64,000 nucleotides of DNA from assembly GCA_937129145.1 (NCBI GenBank), contig CAKZMU010000009.1:80551-144550 (forward strand), in the 5' to 3' direction. A program made the translations under genes and the position numbers. The notes below the pieces were generated by a model, which saw only the letters and a list, made by a program, of their open reading frames with translations, had not been told where the DNA came from and did no database searches. This document shows, piece after piece, positions 7,184 through 61,773 of this stretch (positions are counted from its first letter, which is position 1; each line of letters opens with the position of its first letter). This stretch comes from an uncultured Lacinutrix sp. (GTDB lineage Bacteria > Bacteroidota > Bacteroidia > Flavobacteriales > Flavobacteriaceae).

Positions 7184-9046
7184 ATGAAAAATCTATTTTC
7201 GAATTTAAGAGGTGATATTTTTGGAGGTGTTACAGCAGGGATTGTAGCATTACCTTTAGCATTAGCCTTTGGTGTATCCTCAGGATTAGGTCCAAGCGCT
7301 GGATTATATGGCGCAATTTTTATTAGCTTTTTTGCTGCACTTTTTGGAGGAACAAATACTCAAATTTCTGGACCAACTGCACCTATGACAGCCGTAAGTA
7401 TGGTTGTTATTGCAGGTGTTATTGCTGTAAACGATGGCGATGTTGAAAAAGCACTTCCAGCTATATTAACAGTATTTATTTTAGCAGGATTAATGCAAAT
7501 AGGTCTTGGTGCTTTAGGGCTTGGTAAGTATATTAGGTACATCCCTTATCCTGTTGTATCTGGATTTATGACAGCTATTGGAGTCATAATTTTAGTCACT
7601 CAAATTTTACCATCTTTAGGGTATTATCCAAAAGACGATGTGGAGTTTGTTGAGAGCTTCAAACCAGTAGCTGAAGAGTTAATATTGGAAAACATCCTAA
7701 AAGAAGAAGCGGGAGAAGGCATTTTGGTGCTTGAAGATTTTAAAGAAACAATTGACAGAGCTGAAAAAGTAACACCAAACCAAATACTCAAAGAATCTCA
7801 AACTCTAGCAGCTAAGGATGCGTCTGGTGTAATGGGAGCATTTAAAGTATTACCAAGAGCCTTACAAAATATTAATTGGCTTGAACTACTACTGGCTCTC
7901 GGTACTATATTTATCATTTATGGGTTTAAACGAATCACAAAAGCAGTTCCAAGCACATTGGTCGCATTGGTTGTAATGACCTCGATTGCCATTGGATTTA
8001 GTCTTAATTATCAGCCAATCGAAAGAATACCTGAAGGATTACCAACTATTAAAACTGAAATCTTCACCCAATTTAGCTTAGGCTCTATAACACCATATAT
8101 ATTTACAGCATTGACACTAGCACTATTGGGTGCAATCGATTCTCTATTAACTAGCGTTGTTGCCGATAATATGACAAAGACTAAACACAAACCTAATAAA
8201 GAATTAGTAGGTCAAGGAATTGGAAATACCATAGGCGCATTATTTGGAGGAATTCCTGGAGCTGGAGCTACAATTCGTACTGTAGTTAATATTAATTCTG
8301 GGGGGAAAACTAAGTTGTCAGGAATGATAGCTGGAATTATGTTGTTAATAATTCTATTGGCTTTAGCACCATTGGCATCAAAAATTCCTGCAGCAGTTTT
8401 AGCTGGAATTTTAATTACTGTTGGGATAGGTGTGATGGATTATAAAGGGCTAAGGGCTATTCCTGCTTTACCAAAAGATATAAAAGTAGGGCCTCTAAAA
8501 TTAAGCTCAGAAGTAGTCGTAATGCTAATCGTATTATTATTATCTACTTTTTGGAATTTAGTATTTGCTGTTGGAATTGGATTGGTAATTGCGTCATTAA
8601 TGTTTATGAAGAAAATTGGTGATTTAACCGCCGAACGTAGTGATGTGAAACCGCTAAAAGAAGAAGCTTGGAAAGATGAAATAGGATTCCCAGAAAACCT
8701 TAAAGAAGAAGTGTTTATCAAGCACCTTAAAGGGCCTTTGTTTTTTGGTTCCACAAGTGAATTCCAAAATCTTACTTTACAAATCCCAGATACCGCAAGT
8801 ACAGTAATCATGAGATTAGGCCGTATGCAGTATATGGACCAATCTGGATTATATGCCATGGAAGATATGCTTCAGGCACTACAAACTAAAGGTGTGGAAG
8901 TGTTGTTTGTAAATCTATTACAACAACCACGCTATATGATGGAACGAATTGATATTATTCCAGATTTTATTCCAGAAGAGCACATTTTCAATAGCTTTGA
9001 TGACTGTGCAAGCTGGGTTAAAGAAAACGTAAAAGACACGCATTAA
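7184..9046 (+). CDS. SulP-family anion (sulfate/bicarbonate) transporter with a C-terminal STAS domain
   Basis: SulP signature GVTAGIVALPLALAFGVSSGL, multiple TMs, C-terminal STAS (FGSTSEF…); adjacent to a carbonic anhydrase. Confidence 0.85.
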   Translation: MKNLFSNLRGDIFGGVTAGIVALPLALAFGVSSGLGPSAGLYGAIFISFFAALFGGTNTQISGPTAPMTAVSMVVIAGVIAVNDGDVEKALPAILTVFILAGLMQIGLGALGLGKYIRYIPYPVVSGFMTAIGVIILVTQILPSLGYYPKDDVEFVESFKPVAEELILENILKEEAGEGILVLEDFKETIDRAEKVTPNQILKESQTLAAKDASGVMGAFKVLPRALQNINWLELLLALGTIFIIYGFKRITKAVPSTLVALVVMTSIAIGFSLNYQPIERIPEGLPTIKTEIFTQFSLGSITPYIFTALTLALLGAIDSLLTSVVADNMTKTKHKPNKELVGQGIGNTIGALFGGIPGAGATIRTVVNINSGGKTKLSGMIAGIMLLIILLALAPLASKIPAAVLAGILITVGIGVMDYKGLRAIPALPKDIKVGPLKLSSEVVVMLIVLLLSTFWNLVFAVGIGLVIASLMFMKKIGDLTAERSDVKPLKEEAWKDEIGFPENLKEEVFIKHLKGPLFFGSTSEFQNLTLQIPDTASTVIMRLGRMQYMDQSGLYAMEDMLQALQTKGVEVLFVNLLQQPRYMMERIDIIPDFIPEEHIFNSFDDCASWVKENVKDTH

Positions 9047-29529: not shown

Positions 29530-29613
29530 GGGAACTCGTCAACGTTGGAGAGTTGGTGCAGATTGTAAACCTGTTGCTTAAATGCTAAGAAAGTTCGAAT
29601 CTTTCAGTTCCCA
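29530..29613 (+). tRNA. tRNA-Tyr(GTA), class II (long variable arm)
   Basis: Acceptor GGGAACT/AGTTCCC, anticodon loop ttGTAaa, variable stem-loop cttaAATGCtaag, T-arm GAAAGttcgaatCTTTC; one A·C mismatch in the anticodon stem. Confidence 0.7.
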
Positions 29614-29627
29614 CAAATAAATAGATT

Positions 29628-29700
29628 GACAAGGTGGCTGAACGGTTAAGGCAACAGACTGCAAATCTGTTTTTTGTGAGTTCAAATCTCACCCTTGTCT
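29628..29700 (+). tRNA. tRNA-Cys(GCA)
   Basis: Acceptor GACAAGG/CCTTGTC, anticodon arm ACAGActGCAaaTCTGT, T-arm GTGAGttcaaatCTCAC. Confidence 0.85.
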
Positions 29701-29706
29701 CAAAAT

Positions 29707-29779
29707 AGTATCGTAGCTCAATGGCTAGAGCGCTCGGTTGTCTCCCGAGAAGTTGCGGGTTCGAATCTCGTCGGTACTG
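29707..29779 (+). tRNA. tRNA-Asp(GTC), noncanonical (A1:U72, U37)
   Basis: Acceptor AGTATCG/CGGTACT, D arm GCTCaatggctaGAGC, anticodon arm CTCGGttGTCtcCCGAG, T-arm GCGGGttcgaatCTCGT. Confidence 0.65.
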
Positions 29780-29780
29780 C

Positions 29781-29844
29781 GAAGCAGTTTAAGAGATGAG
29801 AAGTTTACCCTGAGCGTAGTCGAAGGGAATCTTGTCGGTACTGC
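29781..29844 (+). repeat. 46-nt conserved spacer module (…AAGAGATGAGAAGTTTAccCTGAGCGtAGTCGAAGg) followed by an 18-nt direct repeat (17/18 identical) of the tRNA-Asp T-loop-to-3'-end segment
   Basis: gaatctCgtcggtactgc at 29763–29780 recurs as gaatctTgtcggtactgc at 29827–29844; the intervening module is ~85–90% identical to the one at 30183–30226. Confidence 0.8.
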
Positions 29845-29848
29845 AAAT

Positions 29849-29931
29849 CTGGGAGGATAATCCCGAAGGTTCGGGAGTGGTTTACTCGCTTTGGAAGCGA
29901 GAGGTTGTAGGTTCAAATCCTACCTCTCAGA
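29849..29931 (+). tRNA. tRNA-Pro(TGG)-like gene with an aberrant 29-nt D region; possibly a pseudogene
   Basis: Acceptor CTGGGAG/CTCTCAG (one G·U pair), perfect anticodon arm CTCGCttTGGaaGCGAG, perfect T arm GTAGGttcaaatCCTAC. The D region is ~10 nt too long and contains the hairpin TCCCGAaggtTCGGGA. Confidence 0.45.
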
Positions 29932-29937
29932 CAAAAT

Positions 29938-30009
29938 ACTCCGTTAGTCAAATGGCTAAGACGCCTGACTTTCTATCAGGAATTAAGGGTTCAATTCCCT
30001 TACGGAGTA
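29938..30009 (+). tRNA. tRNA-Glu(TTC), noncanonical (A1:U72, U37)
   Basis: Acceptor ACTCCGT/ACGGAGT, anticodon arm CCTGActTTCtaTCAGG, T arm AAGGGttcaattCCCTT. Confidence 0.65.
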
Positions 30010-30014
30010 CACAT

Positions 30015-30100
30015 TGAGATATAGCTTAATTGGTAGAGCGTCGCTCTCATAAGGCGAATGGTTTAGGTTCTCCCGATAGTTATCGGGACTAATATCTCAA
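30015..30100 (+). tRNA. tRNA-Met/Ile2(CAT)-like gene with an 18-nt hairpin insertion in the T loop; possibly a pseudogene
   Basis: Acceptor TGAGATA/TATCTCA, D arm GCTTaattggtaGAGC, anticodon arm TCGCTctCATaaGGCGA. The T region is TTAG-gttc-[TCCCGATAgtTATCGGGA]-CTAA. Confidence 0.45.
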
Positions 30101-30106
30101 CAACAC

Positions 30107-30179
30107 GCAGGAATGGCGAAACGGCAAACGCACTCGACTTAGAATCGAGAAACTGGGAGTTCGAATCTCTCTTCCTGTA
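30107..30179 (+). tRNA. Class-I (short variable arm) tRNA with Leu anticodon TAG
   Basis: Acceptor GCAGGAA/TTCCTGT, D arm GCGaaacggcaaaCGC, anticodon arm CTCGActTAGaaTCGAG, variable region aaact, T arm GGGAGttcgaatCTCTC, A73. Confidence 0.55.
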
Positions 30180-30182
30180 CGA

Positions 30183-30246
30183 AGTAAGGAAAGAGATGAG
30201 AAGTTTATGCTGAGCGAAGTCGAAGTGAATCTCTCTTCCTGTACGA
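30183..30246 (+). repeat. 44-nt conserved spacer module followed by a perfect 20-nt direct repeat of the upstream tRNA's T-loop-to-3'-end segment
   Basis: gaatctctcttcctgtacga at 30163–30182 and again at 30227–30246; the module agtaaggaAAGAGATGAGAAGTTTAtgCTGAGCGaAGTCGAAGt is homologous to 29781–29826. Confidence 0.85.
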
Positions 30247-30247
30247 T

Positions 30248-30321
30248 GCTCCACTAGCCCAAATGGAAGAGGCAACAGTTTTAAGCGCTGTTAAGTCCAA
30301 GTTCGAATCTTGGGTGGAGTA
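30248..30321 (+). tRNA. Class-I tRNA with Leu anticodon TAA
   Basis: Acceptor GCTCCAC/GTGGAGT (G1·U72), anticodon arm ACAGTttTAAgcGCTGT, variable region taagt, T arm CCAAGttcgaatCTTGG, A73. Confidence 0.5.
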
Positions 30322-30327
30322 CAAAAT

Positions 30328-30451
30328 AAGCTTATGGTGTAATGGAAAGCACACAAGGTTTAGCTCATGCATATCTATTTCAAGAAATAGGTATTCGTGA
30401 ATGCAAAGCATTTCGAACCTTGGAGTATGGGTTCAAGTCCTATTAAGCTTA
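30328..30451 (+). tRNA. 124-nt tRNA-like gene carrying a ~52-nt structured insertion in the anticodon loop
   Basis: Acceptor AAGCTTA/TAAGCTT, D arm GTGTaatggaaaGCAC, anticodon stem CAAGG…CCTTG separated by 59 nt, T arm ATGGGttcaagtCCTAT. Mature anticodon TAG if spliced at 37/38, TCG if at 33/34. Confidence 0.45.
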
Positions 30452-30456
30452 CAAAA

Positions 30457-30527
30457 TAACCTGTGGTGTAACGGTAACACTCAAGATTTTGATTCTTGTA
30501 TTATAGGTTCGAATCCTATCAGGTTAT
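30457..30527 (+). tRNA. tRNA-Gln(TTG)
   Basis: U1:A72 acceptor TAACCTG/CAGGTTA, D arm GTGTaacggtaACAC, anticodon arm CAAGAttTTGatTCTTG, T arm ATAGGttcgaatCCTAT. Confidence 0.8.
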
Positions 30528-30535
30528 CAAAAAAT

Positions 30536-30608
30536 GGAACAGTAGCAAAGTTGGTCAATGCGTCGGACTGAAAATCTGAAAATACAGGTTCAATTCCTGT
30601 CTGTTCCA
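30536..30608 (+). tRNA. tRNA-Phe(GAA)
   Basis: Acceptor GGAACAG/CTGTTCC, anticodon arm TCGGActGAAaaTCTGA, T arm ACAGGttcaattCCTGT. Confidence 0.85.
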
Positions 30609-30621
30609 CTAAAATTAAAGA

Positions 30622-30639: not shown

Positions 30640-30767
30640 ATAATATCAAGCTGGTCTTGTTGAGTGTTTCGGTATAGCACTATTGTATAAATCGTTGCAG
30701 AAATGCATCATGAGTTTATGTTCAACTAGACTTGAAGGTTTTGACTGTTAACCAAAAAATGGTCTCC

Positions 30768-30843
30768 CCCTATAGGTCGTGGGTTCGACTCCCACTTATC
30801 CCAATTGGGATAGTAGTTCAGTGGTTAGAACAATAGGATGTAG
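30768..30843 (+). tRNA. Apparently circularly permuted tRNA gene: 3' half (nt 38–73), 3-nt linker, then 5' half (nt 1–37); the mature anticodon would be GTA
   Basis: 3' half: c-CCTAT-aggtc-GTGGGttcgactCCCAC-TTATCCC-a. Linker att. 5' half: GGGATAG-ta-GTTCagtggttaGAAC-a-ATAGG-atGTAg. The acceptor pairs over 7 bp and the anticodon stem ATAGG/CCTAT pairs over 5 bp. Confidence 0.45.
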
Positions 30844-30888
30844 GTGTTGCTGGTTCGATTCCAGTCGTTTGCTTGGAGAAATTCCTTG

Positions 30889-30948
30889 GCAATAGTAGCT
30901 CAATTGGTAGAGCACTGCACTTTTAATGCAGGTTTGGACTCAAAATCC
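30889..30948 (+). pseudogene. Truncated tRNA-Lys(TTT)-like 5' portion with a degenerate T arm and no 3' acceptor strand
   Basis: GCAATAG-ta-GCTCaattggtaGAGC-a-CTGCActTTTaaTGCAG-gttt, then only a 3-bp GGA/TCC stem; no complementary 3' acceptor strand nearby. Confidence 0.4.
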
Positions 30949-30988
30949 ACAATCAAAAGCCCATCATCTTTTAAAACTGATGACCAAC

Positions 30989-31005
30989 GCAGATTGTCAT
31001 TCTGC
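30989..31005 (+). other. Isolated anticodon-arm-like hairpin GCAGAttGTCatTCTGC, a tRNA fragment
   Basis: A 5-bp stem with a 7-nt loop reading as an Asp GTC anticodon. The nearby ggtcgtggga at 31081 resembles the T-arm of the permuted gene. Confidence 0.35.
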
Positions 31006-31450
31006 TCAACAAAAATGACAAAAATAGTAGATTGCAAGTCGGCTTTAGATTCCTGCATTACTGACGCATCGGTCAACACTGGTCGTGGGAATGACAAAAC
31101 TAGAGCAGTCTTGAAAGTGCCTTGAAATACTGATTTTTAATAGTAGAAGTGGTTACTGTTTTGTAATAAGAAATTATATAAATCTGATTATCGATTCATA
31201 TAGTTGTCACAATACTCAGCACTAATTACAGGCACTATTAATATGAGTATTTCCGCACCAGAAAAATGATTTGCTTTCTGCTATTTTTAACAATGAAGAG
31301 ATATAAAAATATACTTCAATTAATGATGAACTCGTCATTGTTTTTTGAAGTTGGTAAGCCTTCCGTTACAAGAATTGCCGCCACGCTCAAAAATGGGCAA
31401 CAATAAATGTTTAATCTTCCTGAAATAAATTCAGGATAAAAAAATTAGAA

Positions 31451-61596: not shown

Positions 61597-61699
61597 TATG
61601 AATTTTAGTTGGTTGTGATTGAAAAATACTTGCTCTAAGGTAAAGAAAAATATAACGAAGAAAAAAGCCTCTCATTTCTGAAAGGCTTGTGTTTAAAAG

Positions 61700-61773
61700 T
61701 GGTCCCACTTGGGCTCGAACCAAGGACCCTCTGATTATGAGTCAGATGCTCTAACCAACTGAGCTATGGGACC
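61700..61773 (-). tRNA. tRNA-Met(CAT) (elongator Met or Ile2-lysidine type; not distinguishable by eye)
   Basis: The reverse complement GGTCCCATAGCTCAGTTGGTTAGAGCATCTGACTCATAATCAGAGGGTCCTTGGTTCGAGCCCAAGTGGGACCA is a canonical cloverleaf with anticodon loop ctCATaa. Confidence 0.85.

Follow-up and report, generated by a model that had tools for sequence, protein, structure and literature searches.

A palindrome in the T loop of an accessory tRNA(CAT) gene of an uncultured Lacinutrix sp., probably a solo relic of a tRNA-associated GIY-YIG selfish element

How does a bacterial tRNA gene come to carry an 18-nt hairpin where part of its T loop should be? The question is raised by a gene at 30015–30100 of a stretch of 64,000 nucleotides (here called the window) from an uncultured Lacinutrix sp., which a first-pass annotation had read as Met/Ile2-like with a CAT anticodon, canonical over its 5' two-thirds, and possibly interrupted by an intron of the archaeal bulge-helix-bulge (BHB) type. 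The flanking genes, which encode RecJ, an MFS transporter, OsmC, a TPR protein, an SPFH protein, an M28 peptidase and UDG, show that the window is bacterial chromosome, with ~34% G+C. The gene lies in a tRNA array between the TPR and SPFH genes, and the features on which the argument turns are the following:

29530–30609, plus strand: accessory tRNA array, in the order Tyr, Cys, Asp, Pro (disrupted), Glu, Met (disrupted), Leu, Leu, Arg (disrupted), Gln, Phe
29849–29931, plus strand: tRNA-Pro(TGG) gene, D loop exchanged for the palindrome in its 16-bp form (from alignment with the nearest genome, L001)
29861–29876, no strand: 16-bp palindrome TCCCGAAGGTTCGGGA, a single mismatch away from TCCCGAAGCTTCGGGA
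30015–30100, plus strand: accessory-array tRNA(CAT) gene, Met or Ile2 type and not initiator, T loop disrupted (from sequence, Rfam, orthologs and in-silico reversion)
30048–30050, plus strand: anticodon CAT (same anticodon arm in the orthologs)
30071–30088, no strand: 18-bp near-perfect palindrome TCCCGATAGTTATCGGGA in place of T-loop nucleotides 57–61 (GATTC in the orthologs)
61699–61773, minus strand: housekeeping canonical tRNA-Met(CAT) (from ARAGORN, Rfam and synteny)

The array packs eleven co-oriented tRNA or tRNA-derived genes, separated by spacers of 4–7 nt, into 1.08 kb, and so belongs to the long, accessory kind of array described as 'L-array' (PMC8421152). We collected 80 syntenic Flavobacteriaceae loci via the SPFH protein, whose closest match is in Gaetbulibacter sp. 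S0825 (92% identity), and across these genomes the array is highly variable, the site holding between 0 and 17 tRNA genes in varying order. A phage origin of the array was considered and rejected, as a blastn search against 50,697 phage records returned matches to single tRNAs only. Some members of the array are unusual in their own right. The tRNA-Tyr(GTA) at 29530–29613 has the long variable arm of class II together with an A31-C39 mismatch, and it is missed by ARAGORN, as is the identical sequence in L001, while orthologs at other loci are called Tyr(gta). The two 'Leu' tRNAs, at 30107–30180 (TAG) and 30248–30322 (TAA), are of class I size (74–75 nt) and have no long variable arm, and one member of 71–73 nt, found between Gln and His/Phe in L004–L073, has an anticodon that varies by species (ATA, AAA, TAT, TGT, CAT or ATC). 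From the class I 'Leu' genes and the shifting anticodon, the array tRNAs may not be ordinary decoders.

The identification of the gene at 30015–30100 as a CAT-anticodon tRNA was borne out both by its sequence and by the tRNA-Met(cat) calls of its orthologs, and its 5' two-thirds is indeed intact. The acceptor stem has 7 bp (TGAGATA at 30015–30021 with TATCTCA at 30093–30099, followed by the discriminator A at 30100), the D arm is normal (GCTT-AATTGGTA-GAGC), and the anticodon arm TCGCT-CTCATAA-GGCGA has a 7-nt loop and is followed by the variable region ATGGT; in all three arms the gene has the canonical bacterial features. The departure comes after this point. The T stem is only 4 bp long (TTAG/CTAA), with G53 opposite an A, and the sequence GTTC after its 5' strand runs directly into TCCCGATAGTTATCGGGA, which, as the annotation had it, stands in for the 3' part of the T loop, where the orthologs have GATTC. 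The insert consists of 8-nt arms around a central GT and as RNA would form 7 bp closed by a 4-nt loop; it is a single mismatch away from the perfect palindrome TCCCGATAGCTATCGGGA, which is itself present in L024, L063, L149, L202 and L208. A canonical T arm, with a 5-bp stem, a 7-nt loop, T54, Psi55, C56, A58 and the G53-C61 pair, is absent, A58 and C61 both being missing. ARAGORN does not call the gene, and the Rfam tRNA model (RF00005) matches it with 30.6 bits against a gathering score of 29 bits, over model positions 6–65 only. The fold of 30015–30100 is strong for its composition (z = -2.8), and a cloverleaf with the additional hairpin is within 1.7 kcal/mol of the minimum free energy. 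By the standard structural rules of tRNA, no T loop or elbow can form once A58 and the G53-C61 pair are lost, and the accessory gene has most likely ceased to give a functional tRNA. One other CAT tRNA exists in the window, the housekeeping tRNA-Met, 31 kb from the array.

Comparison with relatives tells in which direction the change went. In six other Flavobacteriaceae (L001, L005, L015, L021, L027 and L078) the orthologous gene has a normal T arm, TTAGG-TTCGAWT-CCTAA, and is called tRNA-Met(cat); the hairpin is therefore a derived replacement, at the DNA level, of 5 nt by 18 nt. The arrays of the window and of L001 are near-identical apart from discrete indels, one of which is the exchange of GATTC (nucleotides 57–61) for the 18-mer. 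In-silico reversion to GATTC restores an ARAGORN call of tRNA-Met, whereas excision of the hairpin gives no call.

The replacement is not confined to this gene. In the window, the pattern TCCCGA-N(2-12)-TCGGGA has exactly two matches, 30071–30088 and 29861–29876, where none is expected (100 shuffles), and no further copies of either palindrome are found in the 64 kb at up to three mismatches. The second match lies in the neighbouring Pro gene, and the arms that the first-pass annotation saw in both genes are confirmed. Alignment with L001 shows the Pro D loop changed from CGATGGTT to TCCCGAAGGTTCGGGAGTG; ARAGORN is silent on the gene as it stands and calls Pro again once the change is reverted in silico. 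The same D-loop cassette is found in the Pro gene of Hyunsoonleella (L014), so that the allele occurs in two genera, and it is accompanied by compensatory changes in the acceptor and T stems, which could mean that cassette-bearing genes are under selection; the Hyunsoonleella gene also has a C-U mismatch in its anticodon stem.

Beyond the window, other tRNA copies in Flavobacteriaceae arrays have lost a T, D, anticodon or variable loop to palindromes with TCCCGA/TCGGGA arms, and such palindromes also occur in metagenomic contigs of 31–66% G+C. The cassette directly follows GGTTC in the Arg genes of L020 and L056; L041, which has a second array, carries it at this position in four of the tRNAs there. 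In the Asp gene of L024 it has taken the place of the entire T arm. The Arg gene of L056 is identical to the canonical Arg gene of L028 except that AAATC is replaced by CCCCGAAGTTTCGGGA, and since the two differ by the cassette alone, such events must be recent and independent. Cassette sites lack 3–12 nt and show no target-site duplication. We provisionally define the family in part by the replacement of 3–12 nt of a tRNA loop, in T loops right after GGTTC, and by a dyad of 14–20 bp with TCCCGA/TCGGGA arms that is perfect or has few mismatches; the window copy has all of these properties.

The cassettes carry a signature which points to DNA rather than RNA. Among 45 distinct cassettes in tRNA context, nearly all are of even length (14–20 nt) and 12 are perfect palindromes through their very centre, against 2.2 expected, with most of the remainder a single mismatch away from perfection. 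A hairpin selected as RNA would not be expected to become palindromic through its loop, so the signature is one of the DNA level.

What brings such palindromes into tRNA genes? A scan of metagenomes with the pattern GGTTCYCCCGA-N2-8-TCGGGA gave 129 matches, of which ~100, some in coding regions, have no detectable tRNA or GIY-YIG context (at least one, in L114, is at the domain V/VI junction of a group II intron, and several others have the same flanking sequence). The other ~30 have a common layout: an intact tRNA (Phe, Asn, Cys, Val, Met, Leu or Ala), often followed by an ORF, and then a direct repeat of the 3' part of the tRNA, at times running through the terminator, with the palindrome in the T loop of the repeat. 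The ORFs are of ~90–105 aa and match PF01541, the GIY-YIG catalytic domain. We also approached the association from the side of the nuclease, picking eight places by homology to two GIY-YIG proteins alone, with the palindrome not a criterion. At all eight the palindrome is present in a duplicated tRNA fragment beside the GIY-YIG ORF, although in different tRNAs and loops:

L207, Aquimarina: tRNA-Met, anticodon loop
L211/L212, Aquimarina: tRNA-Met, anticodon loop
L208, Aequorivita: tRNA-Asn, variable loop
L210, Flavobacterium MAG: tRNA-Asn, variable loop
L214 and L215, high-G+C contigs: tRNA-Asn, 5' strand of the anticodon arm
L209, Pedobacter: tRNA-Leu, T loop
L213, ENA metagenome contig: tRNA-Phe, D loop of a duplicated 5' half

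At L210, L213 and L215 the unit is amplified in tandem: up to five or more GIY-YIG ORFs stand in a row, and a partial tRNA marked by the palindrome follows every one of them. Rfam searches of the GIY-YIG loci returned tRNAs only. Several details of these loci may be recorded here. The tandem array of L215 (JGI contig Ga0562384_00030) adjoins the gene for queuine tRNA-ribosyltransferase (tgt), and in the Asn family the ORF ends inside tRNA-derived sequence (...LLNGRVPTxRD*), its stop codon lying in the former anticodon loop. On the 4.0-Mb metagenomic contig L092 a copy of a tRNA-Ala T-arm/acceptor minihelix (7330–7480, minus strand) has the palindrome in its T loop and directly follows a tRNA-Ile/tRNA-Ala pair, probably in the spacer of an rRNA operon.

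The window itself holds the counterpart of one of these loci. The housekeeping tRNA-Met at 61699–61773 lies in the synteny RbfA–glyoxalase–tRNA-Met, in which Aquimarina L207 and L211 carry the element and the window does not, so that the window gene is the 'empty site' of a presence/absence polymorphism. As for the array, phmmer searches with two family members as queries covered every window ORF of 45 aa or more and the arrays of the 80 related loci; they found no GIY-YIG ORF in any of these or near the window array, and 29530–30609 contains no ORF at all; L063 has two GIY-YIG ORFs of the family, both outside its array. Two further traits of the family, an adjacent PF01541 ORF of ~90–105 aa and a place in a duplicated, as a rule truncated, copy beside an intact one, are absent from the cassette-bearing tRNA(CAT) gene, which is full length and single within the array; nor do any of the 80 related loci contain the intermediate, that is, an intact Met gene, an element and a marked duplicate. 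Because neither the window nor the related arrays contain a GIY-YIG ORF, what links the window copy to the nuclease is the identity of its cassette sequence.

Taken together, we consider it probable that TCCCGATAGTTATCGGGA is the solo relic of a tRNA-associated GIY-YIG selfish element, a DNA-level cassette and not an intron. In this scenario a TCCCGA/TCGGGA palindrome of 16–18 bp overwrote T-loop nucleotides 57–61 of an otherwise intact, redundant tRNA(CAU) gene. The cassette family is the constant companion of small (~90–105 aa) stand-alone GIY-YIG genes lodged beside tRNA genes, in elements where the nuclease gene is flanked by a partial duplicate of the tRNA whose T, D, anticodon or variable loop has been turned into the palindrome; the window copy is called a solo relic because no nuclease gene lies beside it. 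We infer two possible routes by which the palindrome could have reached the gene at 30015–30100. An intact tRNA gene may have undergone homologous recombination or gene conversion with a palindrome-marked duplicate, with loss of the nuclease gene and retention of the palindrome in a full-length gene, or a nuclease encoded elsewhere in the genome may have acted in trans. For the element, the palindrome could be the site of the nuclease, could make the spare copy immune, or could block recombination by interrupting homology.

The array and its surroundings contain further elements that are distinct from the cassette. Two of them, which we call AB modules (29781–29844 and 30181–30245), sit directly 3' of tRNA-Asp and tRNA-Leu(TAG). 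Each copies the 3' strands of the T stem and acceptor stem of the preceding tRNA and places a complementary 5' strand ahead of them, so that a minihelix results, with a ~38-nt conserved core (GAGAAGTTTA-YCC-TGAGnnnAGTCGAA-GGG-AA) in place of the T loop. The 5' strand of the module covaries with the identity of the tRNA in at least 10 genomes; the closest genome, L001, has no AB module, and in L211 one follows the GIY-YIG element at tRNA-Met. Rfam has no match for the modules, and a role as ribozymes was rejected after threading them by eye on hammerhead, HDV-like, hairpin, twister and pistol folds, as the helices are nested and the core motifs missing. Viral contigs were scanned for both kinds of element: matches to the AB-module core were chance matches in coding regions only, and the T-loop cassette was not found.

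The third disrupted gene, tRNA-Arg(TCG) at 30328–30451, is split in its anticodon loop by a 49-nt element (30362–30410) with a TTT duplication at its flanks; removal of 52 nt brings back an ARAGORN call of Arg(tcg). Elsewhere this element is found in the opposite orientation: at least 17 array tRNAs of other genomes have it in their T loops, behind GGTTCGA. The reverse complement of the Arg anticodon stem-loop is CCAAGGTTCGAA, which indicates that the element recognises a DNA motif and not tRNA structure. Downstream of the array, a non-coding stretch (30640–31050) is kept in nearly all of the 80 syntenic loci, whether or not they have a tRNA array. Rfam matches it weakly with YrlA (Y RNA-like, 32.9 bits), tmRNA-like models and tRNA. 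Within it, a T arm is succeeded by TATCCCAATTGGGATA (30797–30812), a perfect palindrome that closes an acceptor-like stem, and from this stem the sequence continues into a D arm; the stretch looks like a cluster of permuted tRNA-like (Y-RNA-like) genes. At gathering thresholds and at E ≤ 10 Rfam returned only tRNA and these weak YrlA- and tmRNA-like matches.

How do other explanations of the hairpin compare with the relic? An RNA-level intron, of archaeal BHB type or otherwise, removed after transcription to give a mature tRNA, would account for a stable hairpin at a non-canonical position such as is used by tRNA introns of Thermoproteales. However, neither the BHB geometry (3 nt, 4 bp, 3 nt) nor a BHL is present at the junctions: the T stem of 4 bp is followed by a 4-nt bulge (GUUC) in one strand, a helix of 7–8 bp and a 4-nt loop, with no second bulge. 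Since GATTC, including A58 and C61, is deleted relative to the orthologs, excision could not rebuild the T loop, as the silence of ARAGORN after excision also indicates. The cassette moreover occurs in loops of truncated, duplicated tRNA fragments beside GIY-YIG genes and there spans the 3' end of the nuclease ORF (...VPTxRD*), and the excess of central palindromes belongs to DNA. To our knowledge, no tRNA-splicing endonuclease is known in bacteria. Rfam found no intron match on the gene, and a bacterial group I intron was rejected, as these lie in anticodon loops, are at least ~200 nt long and have a P1–P9 core, against 18 nt in a T loop here. With the BHB motif missing, five T-loop nucleotides lost and the palindromy at the DNA level, the archaeal-type intron suggested in the first-pass annotation finds no support, and one half of what that annotation itself counted against an intron, an intact paralogous tRNA-Met, is present at 61699–61773; we regard an intron of any kind as highly improbable. 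Even less can be said for a one-off local mutation, such as template switching at a quasi-palindrome, or for an assembly artefact. Quasi-palindrome correction is able to create perfect inverted repeats, but numerous independent assemblies, from different genera and from metagenomes, contain these arms and often the complete sequence, and this recurrence already refutes such an origin, to which we give practically no credence.

A functional reading deserves more weight, in which the gene encodes a non-canonical tRNA or tRNA-like RNA whose T arm (in Pro, the D arm) is a long bent hairpin kept by selection. The perfectly intact acceptor stem, D arm and anticodon arm, the energetically plausible cloverleaf with its hairpin, the compensatory changes in the Pro allele common to the window and Hyunsoonleella, and the fact that a similar closed hairpin, TCCCGAAAATTCGGGA, is the acceptor-like stem of the conserved downstream YrlA-like RNA (L002, L041, L069) all argue in this direction. 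Yet the flanks are the same as in canonical alleles, so the events are recent and the intact remainder says little; the gene lacks A58 and C61, the cassette is also present in truncated fragments unable to fold as tRNAs, central palindromy is not a product of selection on RNA function, and the Hyunsoonleella Pro gene has its anticodon-stem mismatch. Functional RNA of this sort, which might for example serve as a protein-binding module or as a variant that escapes a nuclease recognising the tRNA elbow, is in our view distinctly unlikely. Alternatively, the palindrome might be a REP- or MITE-like miniature mobile repeat that enters GGTTCGA and has nothing to do with GIY-YIG genes, their co-occurrence reflecting a common preference for tRNA genes. 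Solo copies without an ORF in full-length array tRNAs would be expected from such a repeat, and GGTTCGA is in these arrays the target of the unrelated 49-nt element as well, which is oriented by the DNA motif and not by the tRNA strand. Against it stand the cassettes in or by the adjacent tRNA duplicate at every one of the places picked by GIY-YIG homology, the occurrence of just two copies in 64 kb, both inside tRNA genes, and the loss of 3–12 nt at sites that show no target-site duplication, so that an independent miniature repeat appears unlikely, though not negligible.

We therefore return to the GIY-YIG relic as the preferred reading, and a more specific version of it can be considered. 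Possibly, although we advance this tentatively and would not put it at an even chance, the palindromes are the cognate sites of the ~95-aa GIY-YIG nucleases, a widespread family, which together with them form a new parasite of tRNA genes, and solo copies such as 30071–30088 are its non-autonomous footprints. This parasite would be made up of the gene for the nuclease, a copy of one half of a tRNA and the palindrome that replaces a loop, would be capable of tandem amplification, and would parallel the relationship of REPs and RAYTs, with the best-conserved tRNA-gene motifs as its targets. In the open-access literature on tRNA arrays of Flavobacteria, on T-loop insertions and on GIY-YIG genes with tRNAs or palindromes we found no description of the palindrome/duplicate architecture.

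If the relic reading holds, bacterial array tRNA genes with an 'extra arm' would be marks of a compact selfish element rather than exotic introns, annotators would gain a simple signature for a class of tRNA pseudogenes, and part of the fast turnover of accessory tRNA arrays would be accounted for. The element would parasitise tRNA genes across bacteria of widely differing base composition, and the palindrome would give a family of minimal GIY-YIG nucleases, abundant but uncharacterised, a candidate site on DNA. It would also offer a natural system in which a nuclease element sits beside an essential gene, duplicates it in part and disables the spare copy.

Several known systems invite comparison. 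RAYTs are HUH Y1 transposases and the REPs associated with them are extragenic and numerous; REP/REPIN systems resemble the present case in that short GC-rich palindromes flank a small nuclease-type gene and solo copies are found elsewhere, but here the enzymes are of the GIY-YIG type and the palindromes are inside tRNA loops, with two in 64 kb. Among integrative elements, those with tRNA genes as their targets bring along a substitute 3' part of the tRNA, which creates att duplications. Their layout of an intact tRNA, an element and a direct repeat of the tRNA from a loop to its 3' end and beyond is the one seen here, except that there is no integrase, the payload is one nuclease gene of ~300 nt, and the displaced copy bears the palindrome. 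Archaeal BHB introns likewise enlarge the D or T loops of tRNA genes, whereas the window hairpin has no BHB motif, does not restore the tRNA on excision, is palindromic as DNA and is found in a bacterial host. Published L-arrays, like this one, are compact sets of about a dozen accessory tRNA genes, variable among relatives and with some non-functional members, although recurrent loop-replacing palindromes are not reported in them (PMC8421152). In fungal mitochondria, mobile GC-rich palindromic clusters and double-hairpin elements are also tiny, polymorphic hairpin DNAs inserted in otherwise conserved sequence of AT-rich genomes (PMC4478555), but they are mitochondrial, of other sequence, and without the architecture of GIY-YIG gene and tRNA duplicate.

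The nearest described case is SegB of phage T4, a free-standing GIY-YIG homing endonuclease in a tRNA gene cluster (PMC2330249, PMC13096335). SegB is larger, phage-encoded and equipped with DNA-binding regions, whereas the proteins discussed here have ~90–105 aa and only the catalytic domain and are chromosomal; for Seg enzymes, neither a conserved palindrome cassette nor the replacement of loops in duplicated halves of tRNAs has been described. In both cases, however, a GIY-YIG gene lies among or beside tRNA genes as a selfish cassette inherited with flanking tRNA sequence, and SegB has been linked to segmental amplification of tRNA loci (PMC2330249, PMC13096335), for which the tandem repeats of GIY-YIG genes and tRNA fragments in L210, L213 and L215 provide the parallel.
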